Source: a virus
IMG/VR virus record: IMGVR_UViG_3300019458_000014
Coordinates: 1-43,426 of that record
DNA length: 43,426 bases
Reading direction: 5' to 3' (one strand)
Positions 7,261-43,426 of the stretch are shown in pieces; the stretch's first letter is position 1; every line of letters starts with the position of its first letter. Both the position numbers and the translations under genes were made by a program. The notes beneath the pieces were generated by a model that ran no database searches, was not told where the DNA came from, and saw nothing but the letters and a program-made list of their open reading frames with translations.

Positions 7261-7575
7261 ATGATGGCCCGCGATGTGATCGACCTCGAGTGGATCAGCC
7301 AGGACTGGGGCAGGCGACTTCGCGTGGCGCGCAAGGAGCGCGGCCTGACCCAGCTCCAGGCCTGCGTGGAGCTCGCCGTGACGCTTCGGACCTACCAGAA
7401 GTGGGAGACCGGCACTCTGCCCGATGGGGAGAACGCCGCCACGGTGGAGATCCGGTGGGGGGTTCGAATCATCCCTCCGGGAGACTCTAGGAAGCACGCT
7501 ACGGCCAGGAAGCTCAGTGCGGCCGGACAGCCGACGTCGGCCGAGCCCTCCGGCGTAGCCCTGGTCGCTGGGTGA
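7261..7575 (+). CDS. XRE-family HTH repressor (CI-like), 104 aa
   Basis: WGRRLRVARKERGLTQLQACVELAVTLRTYQKWETG HTH. Stop overlaps the integrase GTG (GTGA). Confidence 0.8.
   Translation: MMARDVIDLEWISQDWGRRLRVARKERGLTQLQACVELAVTLRTYQKWETGTLPDGENAATVEIRWGVRIIPPGDSRKHATARKLSAAGQPTSAEPSGVALVAG
7458..7482 (+). other. tRNA 3'-half mimic (T-loop GGTTCGAATC + acceptor-like strand) inside the repressor ORF: candidate attP core
   Basis: GGGGGTTCGAATCATCCCTCCGGGA read directly. No matching 5' tRNA half upstream, so it is not a tRNA gene. Confidence 0.5.
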
Positions 7576-8471
7576 GCGTCCCCGCCTCGTCGACGGTCAC
7601 GACCGAACGGCCGTTGGCCCGGAGTCCTACAGCAGCCGATACCTACAACGTGGGCGACTCGTTTGCGCTGCTCGCGGCGTGGGTCGAGTGGATGCAGGCG
7701 CGTGACCTCGCCCCCACCACGATCCGCAGCTATGAGAACGGCGTGACCGCGCTCGCCCGCCACCACCGCTGGAAGGTCTCGCTCGTCGAGATGGACGAGC
7801 AGGCAATCGTTACCTTCCTCGCCTCGATCGGCGACCGCTCTCCCACGAAGCAGCTCCACGCGAAGGGCATCCGCTCGTTCTACCAGTTCTGTGTGCGCCG
7901 CCAAGTGCTGCTGTTCGACCCAACGACCGACTGCAGCCCGCGACGGAGATGGCCCGGTGAGCCCGTCCGCTTCGAGCTGGATGAGATGACTCGGCTGCTG
8001 ATCGCAGCGGCGTGGCGGGAGGAGCGACGAGCCTGGGCGTTGCTCGCGTGTTTCGCCCTCGGCGCCCGCCGGACCGAGTTCTGTCTCCTGCCCCTGGCTG
8101 ACATCGACTGGGGGAAGCGCCTGGTCGTCTTCCGGCACACGAAGGGCAACCGGCCTCGGACGGTGGACATGGGCCCGTGGGCGTTCGAGGCGTGCTCCGA
8201 GCTACTCCGCTGGTCCGACGGCGAGCGGCTACTCCCGATCGCGCCCAACTGGTTCAACCGGTGGATGGCGGACGCTGGCAGCGACGCTGGCATCCCTCGA
8301 GCCCGCCTGCACACCCTGCGGGCGACCTTCGCCTCGATCCTCCTCGATGACGGCCAGCCTCCGCAGGTCGTCCAGCGACTCCTCGGCCACCAGTCGCTCG
8401 CGACCACCACCCGGTACGCCGCGATCGGGAGAGACCGACCGACGGCCAAGGCCGTCCAGGTGCTCGGCTAG
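7572..8471 (+). CDS. int: Tyrosine integrase, XerC/D-like, 299 aa
   Basis: SAM-like N-domain (APTTIRSYENGVTAL). Catalytic ARRTEF, HTLRATFAS, LLGHQSLATTTRY. Confidence 0.9.
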   Translation: MSVPASSTVTTERPLARSPTAADTYNVGDSFALLAAWVEWMQARDLAPTTIRSYENGVTALARHHRWKVSLVEMDEQAIVTFLASIGDRSPTKQLHAKGIRSFYQFCVRRQVLLFDPTTDCSPRRRWPGEPVRFELDEMTRLLIAAAWREERRAWALLACFALGARRTEFCLLPLADIDWGKRLVVFRHTKGNRPRTVDMGPWAFEACSELLRWSDGERLLPIAPNWFNRWMADAGSDAGIPRARLHTLRATFASILLDDGQPPQVVQRLLGHQSLATTTRYAAIGRDRPTAKAVQVLG

Positions 8472-9052
8472 AGGGCCAACCCGATGAAGTGCATCTCGAA
8501 GTAGGTGGCGTTCGATGCACCATCGGCGTTGCGGTCGGTCACGGTCGATTGAGCGAAGGCCTCCAAGTAGTCACCCTCGGCAAGCTGCAAGCGCTTCACG
8601 ACCTCAACGGATTCGGGATCGCCGATCCCCGCACCGTTAGCGATTGCGACCTGATTACCACCCGTGTCGGATCCAGCGGCGTTCTGACGGATCTGAGTCT
8701 GGACGACACCGCTGCCGTCGGCACCAGCGGTGAACCGCACGGCCAGAGTGACCTCATAGAACCCGGCAAGGCCGAGTCCACTCGGCACCACGAGTCGGGA
8801 ATTGTTTGTCGACGTGTCGTGGAAGCCGTCGGTGTCTTCGCCGACACTCTCGGAGGTCCAGGCGAGCAGTCCCCACGTATCGACGGTGAGGTTCTGATCC
8901 GTCCCAGCGCGATGGGTCGAGACCCCGTGGTACCTCGCCAGGAAGTCGACCTGCGCCTTGAGGTAGTTCAGGTTGTCCCGGATGTGCAGGTTGAGCTCAG
9001 GGTCGGGAACGACCTCGAGGGTCCGCCACGTCCGCGGCTCGGTCCAGCCCGT
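8468..9052 (-). CDS. Tail fibre / receptor-binding-like protein with C1q/TNF-like C-terminus, about 194 aa; no canonical start (ACG 9052?)
   Basis: The frame is open and clearly coding from 9055 (TGWTEPRTWRTLEVVPDPELNLHIRDNLNYL...), but the first ATG/GTG/TTG is at 8791. SD GAGGGGAG lies 7 nt before ACG 9052. Confidence 0.55.
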   Translation of the reverse strand, partial: TGWTEPRTWRTLEVVPDPELNLHIRDNLNYLKAQVDFLARYHGVSTHRAGTDQNLTVDTWGLLAWTSESVGEDTDGFHDTSTNNSRLVVPSGLGLAGFYEVTLAVRFTAGADGSGVVQTQIRQNAAGSDTGGNQVAIANGAGIGDPESVEVVKRLQLAEGDYLEAFAQSTVTDRNADGASNATYFEMHFIGLAL

Positions 9053-9055
9053 CGG

Positions 9056-9232
9056 CTAGCTCCCCTCGGTCGGCTTCGGGACGTTCGGCACGAGTCCGAC
9101 GCCGAGCGATCCGACGAAGGAGCCGGCCATCGCGAACACGTCGTTGATGCTCACGTCGCCGTCGGCCGTCACGCTTATGGCCACCGCGATCGCGGCGGCG
9201 AGCGCCACGAGGAACTTCCGGATAGCTGCCAT
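9056..9232 (-). CDS. Small membrane protein, 58 aa
   Basis: Hand translation MAAIRKFLVALAAAIAVAISVTADGDVSINDVFAMAGSFVGSLGVGLVPNVPKPTEGS*. TGATG overlap upstream. Confidence 0.5.
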   Translation of the reverse strand: MAAIRKFLVALAAAIAVAISVTADGDVSINDVFAMAGSFVGSLGVGLVPNVPKPTEGS

Positions 9233-9531
9233 CACTTCGCTCCCTTCCTGCGGGCATCAACCAAGATGCCAGCGAACCCGGTACCGGCTAGCACCAGGCC
9301 GACCGCGTACAGGACCGACCTCCACGTGAGCGGGGTCCCTTGGGTCCCGAACACCGCCTCGCCCACGAGCAGGATCGTGATCGCGAACCCGAGGCGCGCC
9401 GAGAGCCATGCCCATGCGAACGGGACCCCCCGGCGCCAGTCGCGGAAGTGCAGACCCACCAGCGACAGGGCACCGCCGGCAGCGAGGGCCGTCATGCCCA
9501 AGATCAAGGCTTTGACGGTCTGCTCAGCCAC
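9232..9531 (-). CDS. Holin-like membrane protein, 99 aa, about 4 TM
   Basis: Hydrophobic segments in ORF 9232..9579. GTG 9531 overlaps the upstream gene by 8 nt. Confidence 0.55.
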   Translation of the reverse strand: MAEQTVKALILGMTALAAGGALSLVGLHFRDWRRGVPFAWAWLSARLGFAITILLVGEAVFGTQGTPLTWRSVLYAVGLVLAGTGFAGILVDARRKGAK

Positions 9532-21956: not shown

Positions 21957-22349
21957 CTATCTCCGCCCCATCAGTCGCGCGATCGTAGCGGCGACCTCGG
22001 CGCCCTTGTCACGCCAGTACTGCGTGCGTTCGACGCCCTGACTTCCGAGCAGCGAGTCGTAGATCTCGAAGTCCGACAAGTGCTGGACGTTCTTCCACCA
22101 GCCCTTCGGCGGGAGCCGCCCCCAGACCTCGTAGTAGATGCGCTCCGCCCGCGGCTTGTCGGGATCCTCGGGCTGCGACGCTGGGCCCTGCCCGGCCGCA
22201 ATGATGGCGGCGACATCTTCGGGAGTCAGCTCGAACGCAGGCGGCTGCGTCCCGCTCGTGCCCTCGTCCCCCGGCGTACCAGCCGGGGGCATGCCGGTCG
22301 TCCCGACGCCGTGTCCAGTCGGTCCAAGCTCCTCTGGCCTCGTGCTCAC
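21957..22349 (-). CDS. Hypothetical virion-module protein, 130 aa
   Basis: ORF track. GTGA overlap with the giant gene. Shares the TGHGVGTTGM decapeptide with it. Confidence 0.65.
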   Translation of the reverse strand: MSTRPEELGPTGHGVGTTGMPPAGTPGDEGTSGTQPPAFELTPEDVAAIIAAGQGPASQPEDPDKPRAERIYYEVWGRLPPKGWWKNVQHLSDFEIYDSLLGSQGVERTQYWRDKGAEVAATIARLMGRR

Positions 22350-25300
22350 TCAGGCACCCCCCCGAGGCGATACCAGGTGTTCGGGATGAAGATCTCGAGC
22401 GCGGAGTCCGGCCCGTTCTCCTTGTCGAGCCAATCCCACTCGGCGCGGAACACCGGGGAGGCCTCCCTCAGCTGGTTCACGTAGCTCCTGACCGACTCGA
22501 TCATGGTGCGGTAGGCGATCGCCTTGGTCGCGGTGTCCTCGAGCCCGTGCAGGTCCGCCCGCTCCACCACGCCTTGAACCTGCCGCACAGCGTCAAGCAG
22601 TCCGTCCCAGTACGGGCGCGCCTCCTCGGCTCCGATGAACCCCCACGTGTCGTCGCGTCGGTTGAGGACCTGCTCGAAGCTCCACCCCCAGGTGTTGGCG
22701 TGGGCGACCTGCGCGGCGAACACCGGATCCGCCGCGGTCTGCTGGCGTATCCACGAGTCGAGCGCCGCATAGGCCCTCGTCGAGGAGAAGGCGGGGTCGG
22801 TCGCCTCCTGCTCAGCAATCGCGAGCCGGACCTGCTCGTACATGCCCCAGAGCTGCTCGGCGCCGGCCGAGGTCTGCTCCCCGAGGACGGTCTCGTGGTC
22901 GAACCGGCTGTTGAACTGGTAGGAGCGTGCCACGAGCGAGAGCAGGTAGCCCTCCCTCTCGGACGGTGACCAGGTTTCCCACCGAAGGATCATCGGGTTC
23001 TGCTTGGTCGAGAAGGCGTCATAGGACCCGTTCACCCAGGCACGAAGAGCTGCGTAGGCAGCGTTCCGCTCCTCCTCGGGACCCGAGAGGTCAATCGCGG
23101 CGCGAAGCTCCTCCATCTCGGACCACCACGGGTTGATCTTCTCGTCGTAGGCGGCCTCCGGGATCGCGTCGAGCAGCCGGTCACCGACCGTTCTGACGCC
23201 AGCTTTGAGCGCCCGGTCGAAGAACAGGCGATAGGCCTGCTCGCCCTGAGGGAAAGCGAGTCCGAGGATCTTGAGGCCCTTCTCCCAGTCGGCCACGATG
23301 CCCAGGCGCTCCGCCGTCTTGGACTCGAGCGTTCGGAGGTTCGCCTCCGACAGTCGATCACGGGTGAGGTCGAACAGGGGTAGGAAGCCCCGAAGCCACT
23401 GACCGACCTCGGTCTTGGAGAAGAGCTTGTCCTTCGCAAGCTCGCGGGCGATGGCCATGACCCGACTCTCCACCTGTTCGGACGAGTGGGAGTCGAAATC
23501 GGTCCGCCACGCGGGGTACAGGTCGCGGATCTCCTTGAGCGCGGCGTCGTGGTCGTTCTTGAGCTCGTCGTAGCCGGGATCGCCCTCCCCGATCCGCTGC
23601 TGGGCCAGGGCATCCACGAGCGCCCGATACCGCGCGTCCTCGGTGAAGAACGCGTCCCAGCCGGACTGCCGCTCGCCCTCGGCGATGAACTCCTCTGGCG
23701 AGCGAACGTGTCGCAGCCCCGCGGCGATCTGCGAGAAGAAGATGCCCGGGTCGAACTTGCCCTCCTCGTACAGCTCACGCGGGATGATCGCCCACACCCA
23801 TTCCGGGTGAAGCTGGGCGAACTCGCGGGCGCCCTTGGTCGACAGGAGCTCGGCGACCGCGCGGTTGGCCGGGATCGGGACCGGCGATGCGAGGGGATCG
23901 TTCGGATCGTCCGCGTCCCAGAAGGTTCGGGCGATCGTCATCAGCCGGAGATCCTCGTGCGTGGCCATGAATCGAGTGCGGCCCTCGAGCGGGCCGTGCA
24001 GCTCGATCAGCGATCGGTACTCGCGCTCGAGGTCGACCGTCGGGAACTCGACCTTGGGCGCTGCGGGGAACACCCACGCGAAGAACATCCGCGCCGCTGC
24101 GAGCTTCCGGGACTGCCTGCGAGCGAGCTCGGGGTTCGGCTCAAGGCCCATCGCCTCCTGGAGCTGCAGGAAGTGGGTCGCGTTGAAATCAGCCGTATTC
24201 CGCGCGGTGTCCGGGAAGGCCGTCTCGATCCCGTAGCGGAGCCAGGCCGGGAGCAGGGCCTCTGGCTGGACGACATTGATGTCTCCGAACTGGAAGAGCC
24301 ACGACTCCACGCGTGCTTTCAGCCGAGCGTTCACGTTCGAGGAGGCGAGCCAGTTCTGCATGGCCATCTGGAACGGCGGCGCGAGCGAGGGCACCGGGAT
24401 CGGGAACTCTGTGCCGGCGAAACCCCCGAGGTTCACCGGGAAGGCACCTTGGGCGAACAGGTTGAAGCTCGACAGGTTGGCCATGAGCTCCCACCCGCCG
24501 CCGGCACCGGGCTTGAGCCGTCCCCCGGTGAACGCCGCGAGGAGCGGAGCGGCGCCGGCCCACCACGAGAGCGGGATCACGAGCTCCCCGGTCTCCGGGT
24601 CGCGCTTGACGAACCCCGACTGCATGGCGTTCCGCCCGAGGCGGAGCGCGTGCCCGAGGACCTCGGGGCGCTGACGGATGATCCGCGACCACACGAGCGG
24701 GAACTCGAGGAAGGGCTGCACGAATACCAGGCCGAAGCGGGTCATCTCCTCGAACCGACCGGTCCGCGAGAAGTCGAACATGATGCGCCGGACCTGCGAG
24801 ATGCCCTGCTGCCGTGCGGTCTCGCGGAAGCCGGGTAGCCCCCGCTGGATCTGCTCGGCTGACCACCCCATCTCGCGCGCGTTCTCCACGAGCGAGCGGT
24901 AGGTGACGTCGTACCAGTGCTTGAAGTAGGGCTGGCGCGAAAGCGTATTCGTCGGGGTCTGCAGGATCAGCCGGCCCATGATGTCTCGGGCTCGCTTGAA
25001 CGGTCCAACCTGCCCCGTGAAGAACTCGGCCATCTCGGGGCCGTGCACGAAGAGCGGCTTTTCGCCCTGCGGGATCGCTCTCAGCACGGAGATGTCGAGC
25101 TGGTTCACCGCGGCGGCCGAGGCGAGCTCGGAATGCCCGGCCGTGATGTCCTCGGCGTAGGCGGCCGCCCGGCGGACCTCGAACTCGAGCAGGTCGTCGG
25201 TGACCTCCTCGGCACCGTGCAGCAGGCCCTTCGCGTAGGACGGGCCCTCCCCGCGCGTGTCCTTGAGCCAGCGCATGATGTCGTCGACGATGTCCTCGGT

Positions 25301-28300
25301 GTCCCTACCTCGCCCCACGCTCCCCAGGATGCGATTGCCCATCGGATCCGTCCCGTATTGATGAACCAGCACGTGCCACCAGTAATCGTCGAAGTTGTCC
25401 GCGTCACGACCGATCGCGTCCCAGCGGCCTGGCCGGAGCTGCCCGAACACACGGCGAAGAGCGTCGTCGGATTGGGTGAGCACGTGTGAGGCGGCAGCCC
25501 CGGCGTTCACGAGCTGCTCGTTCGGGATGCCCGGCAGCGCGAACGTCATGATGCCCTCGTCGATCCGCCGCTGGGCCTCGAGCGCCTGGGTCGCGTTCTT
25601 GGCCGCGTCGCCTCGCACCCGGAGCTTTCCGGCGTCGATGCCGATCGCCGCGAGCTGACGCGGGTACGTGGTGGCGATCGTGAGCGCAGCCTGGCGCATC
25701 TGGTCGTCCCACGCCCCGCCCGTGAGGATCACGTCGGCGAGGGCGCCACCCCGGTCTTGGTGGTCCGGGTTGAAGCCGATGTCGTCGATGATCCCCCGGT
25801 GGGTCCGGTCGTTCAGGAACAAGATCGCGTCCTCGAGCTCCTGACCGCGCTGACCTGGCGCCTCCGGGAGCTTGAAGCCGACGGGGAGCCGCTGCGGCTC
25901 GTTCATCCCGAGGCGAGCGAGCAGGGGCCCCGACCGCTTGCCGGTCTGGAGCCGGCGCATGAGCCCGACGGTCGCGAGGAACCGGCTCTGCTCCTCGATC
26001 CCGACCACGCGCAGGATGTATGCCGGGCGGAGCACCGCGAGCGGCTTCCACACGGCGAGGAAGGCCTGCGAGATGAGCAGGTCGGCCGCCCGGTCCACAC
26101 CACGGCGGATCGGCAGGATCGCCTTGGCGGAGCGGGCCGAGGCGATCGCCTCCGTGAGTCGTGCGACCTCGGCGTCGTTGTTCGCCGCCTTCGCCGCCTT
26201 GAGCGCGCGTTCGAGCTCCGGGACGTTGCCGAGGTTCCCGAGGGTCACGCGCTGAGCCCGCGTCCACTTGCGGAGTGTTCCCATGATCTCGGCGATCCCG
26301 AGCTCGTAGAGCACCGGGTCAAGCATCTCGTAGGTGTTGTCGAACTGCGACCGCAGGAACGGCTGGAACTCGCTCGTAACGCTCGTGATGCCCGCCTCGG
26401 CATCCCGGATGGCCTGCTCGAGCGCCTCGCGCTCTTCACGACCGGCGCCCCGAAGCGCCCGCCGGAGGCCCCGGATCCTGATGCGCTCGGCCTCGGTGCC
26501 CGCAAAGGCTGCGAAGGTCTGGCGCCTCCCGCCCGTCCCGCCACCATAGATCTTCTGTAGGTGCTGGACGATGCGAGCCGAGAGCGCCGCGTCGATGCCG
26601 TACTTGGCGTTCTTGCGCTCCCGGATGCGGGCGTTCCACTCGCCCACGACCCGCTTGAAGTCGGTCTCTCTGGTCGGGTTGCGTCGGTCGACGGCGGCCG
26701 CGAACTGCGTCTTGGCTCGAGCGATCTCATCCGGCGAGGCGACCTTGGAGCGGATCAGGGCGCGCTCGAAGTCGCGAACGACATCGGCATCTTCGATCTC
26801 GAACACGATCCGCGATCCGTAGCGACGCGGGTTCGTCTGGGGAAGCGCCCGGATGGTCCGGCCGATGTCGGTGCCGGCGAACTCGGTCGTCCGCAGCCAG
26901 TTGTTGAACCGGGCAAGCGAGGCACCGGTCAGGCGCCCGCCGGCGATATGGGGGATCTCGAGCATCCTGACGACCCCCCCGGCGAAATCAGCCGCCGCGT
27001 CGTCGAGCACCTGCAACGCCTGGCCAGCCTCTCTGGTCCGGCGCTGCGCCGCGGCCGTCGCCGAGGCCGGCACGCCCATCGTGGTCGCGAACGTCCGGTG
27101 AAGCGCCTCGGTCCGCTGGACGCGAAGCACACGGTCAAGCTCCAGGATGTCCTCGGCGAAGGTCCCCGCCTTGGGCCGCACCCCCATCGCCGTTGCGAGG
27201 AGACCACGGATCGCGGCGTCGCGCTGCTCACCCGACAGGCCGAGCTTCCGGGCCGTCCGGTTGAACTCCCAGACCCGGCTCGCCGTAGCGGCGTCGATGC
27301 CCGACCCGACACCGAACCATCGCCGGTAGTTGTTGACAGCGCGGTCGAACATCGCTTCCGGCCGCCGCGCACGGTCGGCCTCGCGACGGAGATACTGCGC
27401 GATCGTCACGTCTTTCAGATCGCCTATCCGGCGAGCCGGCTGATCCAAGAACTGGTTGACGCGCGAGATGTACTCAGCACTCGAGGCCGTGCCGACTCGG
27501 CCCGAGATCAGATGTGAGGCCTTGACGCCCGAGCGCCAGCGCAAGCCCCACATGAGCGGGTCGACCTTGCCGCCAAGGATCAGGTCGGCCACGGCCGTCG
27601 CCCACATCGGCACACCTGCGTCCTCGTGGAGCTCCGTGTACACGTTGGTCCGGCCCAAGATGATGTCCCGGGAGTCGCGAAGGGCCTCCGCGATCCTCGG
27701 CAGGTCCGGCTCGTCCGTGAGGTGATACGACGGGTCAACCAGAGCCCGCGTGTGCCGCCCGATGTCCCCGAACGCGTCGACGACCTCCCCGAACACCACC
27801 CGCTCGATCGCCCCGACCCCCCGCGAAAGCAAGTCCAACGTCGTCCCGACCGATCGACCGACGAACGTGTCAGTGAACGGAAGCTCTGCTCGCTCGGCGA
27901 TCTCCTTGCCCGCCTTGATGTAGTCGGACTGGGCGTCCTCGAGGACCGAGAGCCAGTCGCCAGGAGATGCCAACCCTGAGAGCACGGTCTCCGCGAACCG
28001 CTGTTGGGCCTCGATGCCTCGGATCTGCGACGGGTCGACGTAGCTCGTCTGCTGTGCGCTCTCGAGGGCAAGCTGGGCCGGAGATATCTCCTCCGTCCGA
28101 GGCTTCACCGCCTGCAGCTCACCGGTCCCGGCGAACACGGGTCGGGAGATGGTCTCCTCGTGCATCTTCAAGACCTCGCCGAGCCGAGGGTCCAGGGCGG
28201 TCGCGACGTCCCCGAGCGTGCGGACCTCTCGGCCCCGGAGCGCGGCCTGGTGAGCGGCGGCGACCTGCAACTGCGGGGTGAGCCCGGGGAGCCTCGCCGT

Positions 28301-28915
28301 GTACTCGAGGTTCTCTCGAAGGAGCGCCAGCTCCACGTCCGACCGAGCGATGTCGAGCGCCGCACCCATCGCTTGAACGAGCTCGAACCGTTCCCCCCTG
28401 ACCGGTGCGAACGCACGCAGCACCTTGGCGACGCGGGCCGGGTCGACCACCATCATCCCCGTCGTCCCCACCCCATGACCGGTCGCAGCTGACGGCGGCG
28501 GCTCGGCCTCGGTAAGGATCGACCGCAGGACCCGCCGCACCATGCGGGTCTCGTCGATCGGGTAGAACCGACGCGCGGTCTCGAGCGTGATCGGCCCACC
28601 GGTCACCGGGTCGGTGTACAGACCGGTGTGGAGGCTCGCCACGCCTGTTCGACTCGACACGACCGACGCACGGTAGGGCTCGAACAGGAAGGAAGGATCC
28701 AGGTCGAATCGACGAGACAGAAGCTTGGCCGCTCGGGTGAGGTCCTGGGCGTTCCACTGCGTCTGCGCGAGCGCCAGTGTCATCCGACTCGGGAGCGTGC
28801 CGCGCGAGGCTCGTTCGACGTCGGAGATGCGCCGGGGAACGTCCGCCCGATACAGATCGAGCAGCTCGGGGCTCTCGCGCTGTTCCGCGCGCAGGATCGA
28901 TTCGGGGATCGACAC
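22346..28915 (-). CDS. Giant protein, 2189 aa, unknown function (internal virion / ejection protein candidate)
   Basis: Uninterrupted 6.6-kb ORF with consistent GC3 bias, between portal and scaffold. No enzymatic motif recognised by eye. Confidence 0.85.
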   Translation of the reverse strand: MSIPESILRAEQRESPELLDLYRADVPRRISDVERASRGTLPSRMTLALAQTQWNAQDLTRAAKLLSRRFDLDPSFLFEPYRASVVSSRTGVASLHTGLYTDPVTGGPITLETARRFYPIDETRMVRRVLRSILTEAEPPPSAATGHGVGTTGMMVVDPARVAKVLRAFAPVRGERFELVQAMGAALDIARSDVELALLRENLEYTARLPGLTPQLQVAAAHQAALRGREVRTLGDVATALDPRLGEVLKMHEETISRPVFAGTGELQAVKPRTEEISPAQLALESAQQTSYVDPSQIRGIEAQQRFAETVLSGLASPGDWLSVLEDAQSDYIKAGKEIAERAELPFTDTFVGRSVGTTLDLLSRGVGAIERVVFGEVVDAFGDIGRHTRALVDPSYHLTDEPDLPRIAEALRDSRDIILGRTNVYTELHEDAGVPMWATAVADLILGGKVDPLMWGLRWRSGVKASHLISGRVGTASSAEYISRVNQFLDQPARRIGDLKDVTIAQYLRREADRARRPEAMFDRAVNNYRRWFGVGSGIDAATASRVWEFNRTARKLGLSGEQRDAAIRGLLATAMGVRPKAGTFAEDILELDRVLRVQRTEALHRTFATTMGVPASATAAAQRRTREAGQALQVLDDAAADFAGGVVRMLEIPHIAGGRLTGASLARFNNWLRTTEFAGTDIGRTIRALPQTNPRRYGSRIVFEIEDADVVRDFERALIRSKVASPDEIARAKTQFAAAVDRRNPTRETDFKRVVGEWNARIRERKNAKYGIDAALSARIVQHLQKIYGGGTGGRRQTFAAFAGTEAERIRIRGLRRALRGAGREEREALEQAIRDAEAGITSVTSEFQPFLRSQFDNTYEMLDPVLYELGIAEIMGTLRKWTRAQRVTLGNLGNVPELERALKAAKAANNDAEVARLTEAIASARSAKAILPIRRGVDRAADLLISQAFLAVWKPLAVLRPAYILRVVGIEEQSRFLATVGLMRRLQTGKRSGPLLARLGMNEPQRLPVGFKLPEAPGQRGQELEDAILFLNDRTHRGIIDDIGFNPDHQDRGGALADVILTGGAWDDQMRQAALTIATTYPRQLAAIGIDAGKLRVRGDAAKNATQALEAQRRIDEGIMTFALPGIPNEQLVNAGAAASHVLTQSDDALRRVFGQLRPGRWDAIGRDADNFDDYWWHVLVHQYGTDPMGNRILGSVGRGRDTEDIVDDIMRWLKDTRGEGPSYAKGLLHGAEEVTDDLLEFEVRRAAAYAEDITAGHSELASAAAVNQLDISVLRAIPQGEKPLFVHGPEMAEFFTGQVGPFKRARDIMGRLILQTPTNTLSRQPYFKHWYDVTYRSLVENAREMGWSAEQIQRGLPGFRETARQQGISQVRRIMFDFSRTGRFEEMTRFGLVFVQPFLEFPLVWSRIIRQRPEVLGHALRLGRNAMQSGFVKRDPETGELVIPLSWWAGAAPLLAAFTGGRLKPGAGGGWELMANLSSFNLFAQGAFPVNLGGFAGTEFPIPVPSLAPPFQMAMQNWLASSNVNARLKARVESWLFQFGDINVVQPEALLPAWLRYGIETAFPDTARNTADFNATHFLQLQEAMGLEPNPELARRQSRKLAAARMFFAWVFPAAPKVEFPTVDLEREYRSLIELHGPLEGRTRFMATHEDLRLMTIARTFWDADDPNDPLASPVPIPANRAVAELLSTKGAREFAQLHPEWVWAIIPRELYEEGKFDPGIFFSQIAAGLRHVRSPEEFIAEGERQSGWDAFFTEDARYRALVDALAQQRIGEGDPGYDELKNDHDAALKEIRDLYPAWRTDFDSHSSEQVESRVMAIARELAKDKLFSKTEVGQWLRGFLPLFDLTRDRLSEANLRTLESKTAERLGIVADWEKGLKILGLAFPQGEQAYRLFFDRALKAGVRTVGDRLLDAIPEAAYDEKINPWWSEMEELRAAIDLSGPEEERNAAYAALRAWVNGSYDAFSTKQNPMILRWETWSPSEREGYLLSLVARSYQFNSRFDHETVLGEQTSAGAEQLWGMYEQVRLAIAEQEATDPAFSSTRAYAALDSWIRQQTAADPVFAAQVAHANTWGWSFEQVLNRRDDTWGFIGAEEARPYWDGLLDAVRQVQGVVERADLHGLEDTATKAIAYRTMIESVRSYVNQLREASPVFRAEWDWLDKENGPDSALEIFIPNTWYRLGGVPE

Positions 28916-43196: not shown

Positions 43197-43406
43197 CTAG
43201 CGGTCGGTCACGTCTTGACGATCACCCCCTCGACTTCCGCTCAAGGGTCGGAACCACCAGTAGCGGAACCTCACGTCTGGCGTCCCGGCATCACGCAGCA
43301 CAGGCCGGACCTCGCGGAACACGCCGACCAGTCGCTCAACGTATGCCTCCGGGGTCGGTTCGAGCCCGATCTGTTCGGGCACGCCGTAATCTTGCTTGGG
43401 CGTCAT
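43197..43406 (-). CDS. 69-aa ORF resembling an internal segment of N6/N4 DNA methyltransferases (probable remnant); spans the terminal repeat
   Basis: GLEPTPEAYVERLVGVFREVRPVLRDAGT resembles the block after the DPPY motif, but no DPPY or SAM-binding motif is present. Confidence 0.4.
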   Translation of the reverse strand: MTPKQDYGVPEQIGLEPTPEAYVERLVGVFREVRPVLRDAGTPDVRFRYWWFRPLSGSRGGDRQDVTDR

Positions 43407-43426
43407 CGTGGGCTCCGCTCACCTAC
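43304..43426. repeat. Terminal direct repeat, copy 2 (identical to 1..123)
   Basis: Direct comparison. Confidence 0.95.

Follow-up and report, generated by a model that had tools for sequence, protein, structure and literature searches.

ACG at the initiator position of an intact phage fibre-type gene: proposed near-cognate initiation beside a stop codon

Introduction

How is a protein made from a reading frame that is intact, conserved and plainly coding, yet has no canonical start codon where nearly all of its relatives have one? The question is raised by a locus on the minus strand of the virus record IMGVR_UViG_3300019458_000014 from IMG/VR, the whole 43,426 nucleotides of which were analyzed and are called the window below. 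There, an open reading frame (ORF) for a small fibre-like protein follows the TAG stop codon of a small membrane ORF in the same frame, with ACG in the place of the initiator. The analysis described here confirms the observation, which does not stem from some trivial misreading of the frame, and suggests that the gene may well be served by weak near-cognate initiation at the ACG, apparently coupled to the adjacent stop codon, as judged from the sequences of the window and of its relatives. The individual case in the window may be a fresh mutation; the pattern at the level of the family rests on seven cases.

An open frame behind a stop codon

Past the TAG at 9058-9056, the frame of the membrane ORF continues through CCG (9055-9053) and ACG (9052-9050) into GGC TGG ACC GAG CCG CGG ACG TGG and stays open for 195 sense codons, up to a second TAG at 8470-8468. 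A sequence-only reading of this contig had described a frame open for 195 codons behind the TAG of a 58-residue membrane protein, with its first ATG, GTG or TTG only after 88 codons, at 8791, and on the minus strand both statements hold, the first canonical codon being GTG 8791-8789. The membrane ORF itself counts 59 residues from GTG 9235 or 58 from ATG 9232. It contains two hydrophobic segments, has a guanine-plus-cytosine (GC) content of 0.88 at third codon positions, and is without a match in Pfam or PHROG.

The same reading had pointed to a good Shine-Dalgarno (SD) sequence 7 nucleotides ahead of the ACG, and this too stands: the SD-like GAGGGGAG at 9067-9060 lies within the 3' end of the membrane ORF, and the gap between it and the A of ACG 9052 is exactly 7 nucleotides (CTAGCCG). 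The near-cognate codon in the conserved start slot is thereby accompanied by an SD at a functional spacing. The computed duplex energy of GAGGGGAG with the anti-SD sequence, -7.8 kcal/mol, equals the median of the 148 family members with canonical starts. The TAG of the membrane ORF and the ACG are 3 nucleotides apart, a closeness of stop and start that is found in termination-reinitiation pairs. Near the junction, no promoter-like site (0 in all) and no terminator-like site was found on the strand of the gene, and the RNA structure predicted across the junction is unremarkable, with a fold z-score of -0.24.

The stretch without a start codon is coding

The 88 codons that precede GTG 8791 code for protein. 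Their GC content at the first, second and third codon positions is 0.61/0.47/0.85, a pattern that rotates in the other two frames and that is typical of coding sequence in this genome of 68% GC. A search with the single sequence retrieved full-length homologues at E = 2e-21 to 5e-19, and the residues conserved in relatives are retained in the ORF of the window, as seen in a three-sequence alignment. Moreover, these codons encode the N-terminal motif of a large protein family, in which no other region is conserved as strongly. The earlier judgement that the stretch is obviously coding is thus upheld on three grounds, namely GC signature, homology and fold.

These results bear directly on the annotated alternative, in which the gene would begin at GTG 8791 and yield a protein of 107 residues. 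This is the first canonical in-frame start and the choice of gene callers, as in the public call P0001 (107 residues from GTG 8791), which occurs on one contig only. Starting there would leave 88 codons that are coding by composition and homology outside the gene, and would remove the conserved N-terminal block, as the sequence-only reading had foreseen; residue 88 falls inside the β-sandwich described below, so that arm, helix and initial strands would all be missing from the product. No strong SD-like sequence lies ahead of the GTG, and similarly truncated calls in relatives (P0193, P0194 and P0195) are gene-calling artefacts. An authentic start at 8791 is very improbable and is rejected.

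A small fibre protein with a C1q/TNF-like head

The protein read from the ACG position was modelled with AlphaFold2 from a 60-sequence alignment. The model of its 194 residues has a mean predicted local distance difference test score of 94.3 and a predicted template modelling score of 0.87; in it, residues 1-16 form an extended arm, 17-39 a helix and 43-192 a β-sandwich. Compared with the PDB by Foldseek, its top match is the central spike knob/petal of Staphylococcus phage phi812 (9eul, E = 1.8e-10), followed by tail and short-fibre domains of cyanophages and then by many C1q and TNF-ligand domains; 354 matches reach E <= 1e-3, and the TM score is about 0.83 when normalized to C1q domains. 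The β-sandwich is accordingly a jelly roll that superposes on C1q/TNF domains. In the viral structure library BFVD, the matches are C1q-domain proteins of uncultured Caudovirales as well as proteins annotated as tail fibres or minor tail proteins, and a profile search of PDB sequences gave a weak match to the phi812 entries 9eul/9euf (E = 2e-8).

At the sequence level, the family is defined by the N-terminal motif [A/G]-W-T-x-P-R-T-W...L-N-x-H-[IV]-R-D-N and by a C-terminal β-sandwich of about 140 residues carrying D-T-D-x-x-H-D...N-N-S-R...G-D-Y-[VL]-E. Both features are present in the window, the second of them in alignments as well as in the model. The N-terminus in the window reads T-G-W-T-E-P-R-T-W...L-N-L-H-I-R-D-N, and departs from the motif at the initiator codon alone. 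The fibre protein matched nothing in Pfam or PHROG, DNA and protein searches of GenBank phages returned nothing useful, and relatives in cultured phages are almost nil; a profile search, by contrast, found 16,391 metagenome cluster representatives that match the family at E <= 1e-3. In giant proteins, the C1q-like head domain is often repeated in tandem, with 6-11 copies in P0007, P0008 and P0012, which are 1400-2100 residues long.

Taken together, model and matches support the view that the ORF at 9052..8468 is intact and encodes a small protein of the tail-fibre or receptor-binding type, with a predicted N-terminal attachment arm and helix and a C1q/TNF-like head. The earlier label of a receptor-binding-like fibre with a C1q/TNF-like C-terminus agrees with the model and with the Foldseek matches in both PDB and BFVD.

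Where members of the family begin

In family loci recovered by the peptide motif alone, independently of gene calls, a canonical start almost always lies exactly two codons before the W of W-T-x-P-R-T-W. Among 167 distinct instances, this codon is ATG in 139, GTG in 7 and TTG in 2 (148 canonical in all); in ten others a canonical start is no more than four codons away, and in 7 the codon is ACG or ATC. The N-terminus M-[A/G]-W-T-x-P-R-T-W is found in about 150 relatives, and ACG 9052-9050 fills exactly the slot of this methionine. An exhaustive HMMER search gave a consistent picture, with about 26 single-domain proteins of 170-188 residues that open with M-[A/P/T/S]-W-T.

The same register is seen when individual loci are compared. 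The nearest architectural relative, L001, is a 44.9-kb JGI contig in which a homologous membrane ORF of 57 residues ends in TAG and is followed directly by GTG GGC TGG ACC GAG CC...; this pair, at 9827-10546 of L001, corresponds to 8468-9235 of the window. L001 thus has GTG-GGC-TGG, L002 and L003 have ATG-CCG/GCG-TGG, and the window has ACG-GGC-TGG at the same place. One trait of the family, a canonical start exactly two codons before the W, is lacking in the window. The sequence-only reading had singled out ACG 9052 as the codon that would be the start, and the initiator methionine of the relatives sits exactly there. It had also looked to relatives for a verdict on the base itself. They do carry ATG or GTG at this codon, but at 36-40% identity they fix the position of the start and do not prove that the base in the window is wrong. 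Relatives above 40% identity were absent from a search of 5.8 billion proteins, a degenerate pattern for the window's own N-terminus matched nothing in IMG/VR or in metagenome contigs, and the genome collection yielded only distant matches to the N-terminal motif.

Recurrence of ACG and ATC at the initiator position

The window is not alone in this family in having a non-canonical codon at the slot. Seven members do, with ACG in the window, L188 and L015 and ATC in L023, L264, L266 and L283. They were reached by several routes. A scan of 241 million metagenome records for ACG-[G/A]-W-T-x-P-R-T-W produced 92 matches, 91 of which are chance occurrences in GC-rich DNA and one a true member, L188, which reads TAG (the stop of a 509-residue tail protein) ...GGAAGGGAG CGCAGTAGCT ACG GCT TGG ACG ACA CCT CGA ACC TGG, with no canonical start ahead of the motif. 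L264/L265 (TTAGGAGGGCAGTAGCT ATC GCT TGG) and L266 (TGG TGA CGT ATC GCC TGG) were traced through truncated protein calls among the homologues. A pattern scan of IMG/VR that was blind to the start codon gave L283 (CCG TAG GAG GGT AGT CAC ATC GCT TGG), and a relaxed motif search of the start-blind loci gave both L015 (TAA TTC ATG GAG GAC TAG CTT ACG GCC TGG) and L023 (ATG AGG CTG GAG GGC TGA CCG ATC GCC TGG). In the last two loci, an ATG-started mini-ORF of 3-5 codons (MED* at L015 2986-3003, MRLEG* at L023 2976-3002) holds the SD and ends one codon before the ACG or ATC, and in L023 its ATG overlaps the stop of the upstream gene (ATGA).

The best BLAST matches of the seven are proteins with canonical starts; the seven are not each other's best matches and therefore represent independent events. 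All have an SD-like sequence ending 6-10 nucleotides upstream and an intact ORF of 172-278 codons. The rate of non-canonical codons in start-blind samples is 2/47 and about 1/82, and with a fixed DNA pattern in IMG/VR, ATG was found 117 times and ATC once. This pattern gave no true ACG, ATA, ATT, AAG, AGG or CTG, its single ACG match being due to chance, and separate scans for AAG/AGG and CTG likewise found chance matches only. Where no canonical start is near, the start slot is always occupied by a single-base neighbour of ATG, save in two members with longer N-terminal extensions.

Several features set the seven apart from canonical members, with the qualification that the tests of association were devised after the data had been seen and that n = 7. 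In 4/7 non-canonical and 15/147 canonical cases, a stop in the same frame precedes the start by exactly one codon (Fisher p = 0.005, post hoc); such a stop is found within seven codons of the start in 7/7 and 82/147, respectively (p = 0.02, post hoc). Both associations would suit a role for a nearby stop. As a group, the seven also have slightly stronger SD sequences than the canonical members (one-sided Mann-Whitney p = 0.026).

Seven independent members with ACG or ATC argue against a one-off sequencing error and against ordinary pseudogenization. The first of these explanations would have T as the true base at 9051 on the minus strand and ATG as the start of the gene. It draws on the fact that the window is a single metagenomic contig, with no other contig carrying its fibre protein, and on the exactness with which an ATG would suit both the family and the style of the gene junctions in this phage. 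Substitution errors in a consensus are rare, however, and one would have had to strike exactly this base. Nor were other broken genes noticed on the contig. Six further independent assemblies with ACG or ATC at the same codon make the phenomenon real for the family, and consensus errors cannot plausibly have hit the same codon seven times. For the window itself, an error is accordingly quite improbable.

How the fibre protein might be made

The sequence-only reading had named four options, namely initiation at the ACG, a base error or polymorphism, read-through of the TAG, and an inactivated gene, and had made no choice among them. The explanation best suited to these observations is that the fibre protein is made by weak near-cognate initiation at the ACG, aided by the SD and by coupling to termination upstream, a reading to which a probability of about 0.5 is given on the basis of the sequences. 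In this scheme, the near-cognate ACG would replace the canonical initiator, with the initiator transfer RNA (tRNA) still beginning translation there; GAGGGGAG would position the ribosome on the ACG; and ribosomes that end at the TAG of the 59-residue ORF, 3 nucleotides upstream, would reinitiate through termination-reinitiation or a local form of coupling. The outcome would be a low yield of the full-length fibre protein. Decoding of the ACG as a start by this host, a contribution of coupling, and tolerance of or selection for low expression are inferred steps of the scheme. Precedent for the individual elements is available. In Escherichia coli reporters, ACG initiates at about 0.1-1% of the level of AUG, with N-terminal methionine detected by mass spectrometry (Hecht et al., bioRxiv 10.1101/063800). 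Termination-reinitiation works efficiently only where stop and start overlap or lie a few nucleotides apart (PMC10666635), and the specificity for start codons during reinitiation has been listed as an open question (review PMC12548453).

A second explanation is loss of the start: an ATG-to-ACG transition would recently have shut off, wholly or almost so, an accessory fibre gene that the phage can do without and that has had no time to decay. It is less probable than weak initiation at the ACG but is a serious alternative. ACG is one transition away from ATG, the gene sits in the accessory zone bounded by lysis cassette and integrase, all seven cases are singleton tips whose nearest relatives are canonical, the ACG variant is very rare in large collections, and the SD is of median strength and shows no compensation. 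What speaks against it is the spectrum of changes in the family. Random inactivation predicts, by a rough estimate for a 180-codon ORF, at least 10 nonsense or frameshift mutations for every loss of a start, whereas start variants are at least about as frequent in this family as clearly truncated ORFs. Indeed, no clearly truncated ORF was identified in the family; 11 of 151 instances are shorter than 130 codons (91 to 127), and six of these, clustering at 91-94 codons, may be a natural short subtype. The slot shows only the near-cognate codons ACG and ATC, with AAG, AGG, ATA, ATT and CTG absent from the scans, and the ORF in the window is fully intact. The implausibility of repeated consensus errors, the lack of clearly truncated ORFs and the spectrum of codons together suggest that the non-canonical variants keep some expression. 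Silencing also overlaps with weak initiation at the ACG and differs from it mainly in degree, as any residual expression would use the same ACG mechanism.

At the other end of this range stands a stronger form of the argument, in which ACG and ATC would be selected low-efficiency initiation codons, read by ribosomes that have just terminated and setting a low copy number for the fibre protein. It can be put forward only tentatively.

A number of observations weigh against weak initiation at the ACG as the explanation of the locus. Conservation of the codon among diverged orthologues, which marks established functional non-canonical starts, is lacking: every case is a singleton tip with canonical nearest relatives, and no diverged clade shares the codon. 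The SD in the window is only of median strength, without a sign of compensation. ACG is among the weakest near-cognate starts measured, and it is rarer here than ATC, with 1 true member among the 92 metagenome pattern matches and none among the IMG/VR matches to that pattern. We know of no natural ACG start in a bacterium or phage, and searches of an open-access subset of the literature found no report of one. Searches of proteins, IMG/VR and metagenomes found no near-identical contig that would confirm the base, and the supporting statistics are post hoc, with n = 7.

Genome context and the style of TAG junctions

The window is the whole contig. It has a GC content of 68% and a direct terminal repeat of 123 base pairs (1-123 and 43304-43426), which indicates a complete, circularly closed phage genome assembly. 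Its genes include those for a capsid protein (PF13252), a podophage Gp80-like fibre adaptor (PF23140) and an NlpC/P60 protein, together with ORFs of 384 and 897 residues that probably encode tail proteins, several small membrane ORFs in a row, and a helix-turn-helix regulator beside the integrase. A 2189-residue ORF at 22346-28915 on the minus strand, upstream of the capsid genes, has no Pfam match and may be a giant internal or ejection protein of a podophage-like genome. The fibre gene is the last before the integrase, in the accessory zone that extends from the lysis cassette to that gene. The TAG stops of the fibre gene (minus strand) and of the integrase (plus strand) share the palindrome CTAG at 8468-8471, leaving zero intergenic space at that end of the integrase. 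In L002, L003, L188, L266 and L283, the gene directly ahead of it is that of a large tail protein; as the fibre gene stands behind the lysis cassette in the window and in L001 but behind the tail protein elsewhere, it has moved between modules. Coordinates of the features discussed are collected in Table 1.

Table 1. Features of the fibre locus and TAG junctions in the window
Feature	Position	Strand	Basis or remark
Small membrane ORF upstream	9056..9235	-	Last gene of the lysis cassette; stop TAG 9058-9056
SD-like GAGGGGAG	9060..9067	-	Sequence; within the 3' end of the upstream ORF
ACG, proposed near-cognate start	9050..9052	-	Homology; at the conserved initiator position of the family
Fibre-like ORF, 194 codons plus stop TAG 8470-8468	8468..9052	-	Frame, homology, GC signature, model
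N-terminal module, residues 2-39: GWTEPRTW arm and helix 17-39 (LNLHIRDNLNYL...)	8936..9049	-	AlphaFold2, motif conservation
C1q/TNF-like β-sandwich, residues 43-192	8477..8926	-	Structure and sequence matches
GTG, first canonical in-frame start	8789..8791	-	88 codons precede; yields the 107-residue product of gene callers
Tyrosine integrase, convergent	7572..8471	+	PF00589, E = 2e-19; phrog_1
TAG junctions (eight)	31547, 29281, 28921, 21959, 16121, 14876, 9058	-
TAG junctions (eight), continued	40506	+

The arrangement at the ACG is one that this phage uses elsewhere. In all eight of the TAG-terminated genes of the window that have a close downstream gene, the next start is in frame at 0 or +3 nucleotides. 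The +3 junctions read TAG ACG ATG, TAG GCC GTG, TAG GCG ATG and TAG nnn GTG, and the 0 junctions TAG GTG, TAG ATG and TAG GTG; TAG CCG ACG conforms to the +3 type, except that ACG takes the place of the start; four other genes use this type, in which a stop is followed by one codon and then a start. Spacings of +1, +2, +4 and +5 never occur at TAG junctions of the window. Its TGA-terminated genes mostly overlap the next gene (by -4, -8 or -1 nucleotides), and a few have short positive spacings.

So regular a pattern could also be taken to mean that TAG is translated, and two explanations of this kind were weighed. In the first, the TAG at 9058-9056 would be read through to give a membrane-anchored fusion of about 255 residues. 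The two ORFs are in frame in both the window and L001, a C follows the stop, all TAG junctions of the phage are in frame, and upstream genes that share the frame are weakly in excess, with 5/7 non-canonical as against 43/144 canonical cases (p = 0.03, post hoc). Yet no suppressor tRNA was found in the window or in related loci, and L001 has a GTG start of its own right after the TAG. Family members depend on a free M-[small]-W-T N-terminus, and in L002 and L003 the protein stands alone. Among the non-canonical cases, L015 and L264 carry two in-frame upstream stops, which would require two read-through events, the upstream gene of L023 is out of frame, and the stops vary (TAG, TGA and TAA). With an SD correctly spaced for the ACG, the downstream ORF of the window also has initiation signals of its own. 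Read-through is therefore improbable as the source of the fibre protein.

The second explanation, reassignment of TAG to an amino acid in this phage, would turn all eight TAGs into codons within continuous reading frames. Seven of the eight, however, have ATG or GTG within 0-1 codon and are real gene boundaries, the eighth being the ACG junction; the ORFs of 2189, 897 and 736 residues are open under the standard code without an internal TAG; and the window contains no tRNA gene. Reassignment is extremely improbable and is rejected.

Significance

For annotation, the consequences are immediate. Gene callers that follow table 11 cannot call ACG and so deliver the fragment P0001, a product of 107 residues that is without half of its fold. 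The relatives P0194 (L264) and P0195 (L266), with ATC in the start slot, are likewise clipped, to 161 residues. The public calls P0193 (L003), P0194 and P0195 are N-terminally truncated by 14-20 residues; for the latter two, the truncation is attributed to ATC being the true start, while for P0193 the caller picked an internal GTG despite the presence of an ATG. Such mis-calls matter, as receptor-binding proteins are mined for the prediction of host range.

For the understanding of translation, much depends on which reading is correct. If the ACG and ATC starts are true, nature has provided in this family seven test cases, each evolved independently, for near-cognate initiation beside a stop codon, and these would bear on how the specificity for start codons is controlled in reinitiation. 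If, in addition, the codons have been selected, they would include the first natural ACG starts in translation of the bacterial type and would suggest that coupled reinitiation relaxes the choice of start codon. If the start has only mutated, the gene in the window is an accessory fibre that was silenced a short time ago, and it has nothing to teach beyond annotation.

Comparison with known systems

Near-cognate starts do occur naturally in bacteria, as in the AUU starts of infC and pcnB of E. coli. The bacterial genetic code, table 11, recognizes ATT, ATC, ATA and CTG as rare starts; ACG is not recognized there. The fibre family resembles infC and pcnB in that a codon one base removed from AUG follows an SD at the conserved site of initiation, presumably with a lower yield, and the four ATC members fit this comparison directly. 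It differs from infC in that the AUU of that gene is conserved across species and takes part in a feedback loop of initiation factor 3 (IF3), whereas the cases in the fibre family are singletons with no evident regulatory loop.

Among viruses, the minor virion protein A1 of phage Qbeta is produced by programmed read-through of a stop codon. The window shares with it an in-frame ORF behind a stop and an expected product of low abundance; unlike A1, its ORF has its own SD and a conserved initiator position, and the homologues are stand-alone genes. VP2 of adeno-associated virus (AAV) and the C' protein of Sendai virus are ACG-initiated minor structural proteins of eukaryotic viruses. The likeness here, a weak ACG start for a viral protein of low copy number, is one of analogy only, as AAV VP2 and Sendai C' rely on eukaryotic scanning and leaky initiation, without an SD or coupling to an upstream ORF.

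With respect to mechanism, the closest experimental parallel is provided by the reporters of Hecht et al. (bioRxiv 10.1101/063800), in which full-length protein can be detected when ACG follows a good ribosome-binding site. Those are engineered constructs in E. coli; the gene in the window is a natural one, of a phage with a high-GC host. The stop codon 3 nucleotides from the proposed start recalls the termination-reinitiation coupling described by Huber et al. (2019, PMC6728339; 2023, PMC10666635), whose cases use ATG or GTG and typically involve ATGA or TGATG overlaps.

The protein itself belongs with a recognizable group of phage structures. It shares its jelly-roll fold with the central spike knob/petal of phi812 (9eul/9euf), with the short tail fibre CBD of cyanophage A-1(L) (8ke9) and with C1q-domain proteins of uncultured Caudovirales, and is distinguished from these spike and fibre heads as a stand-alone protein of about 190 residues that carries its own MxWTxPRTW arm.

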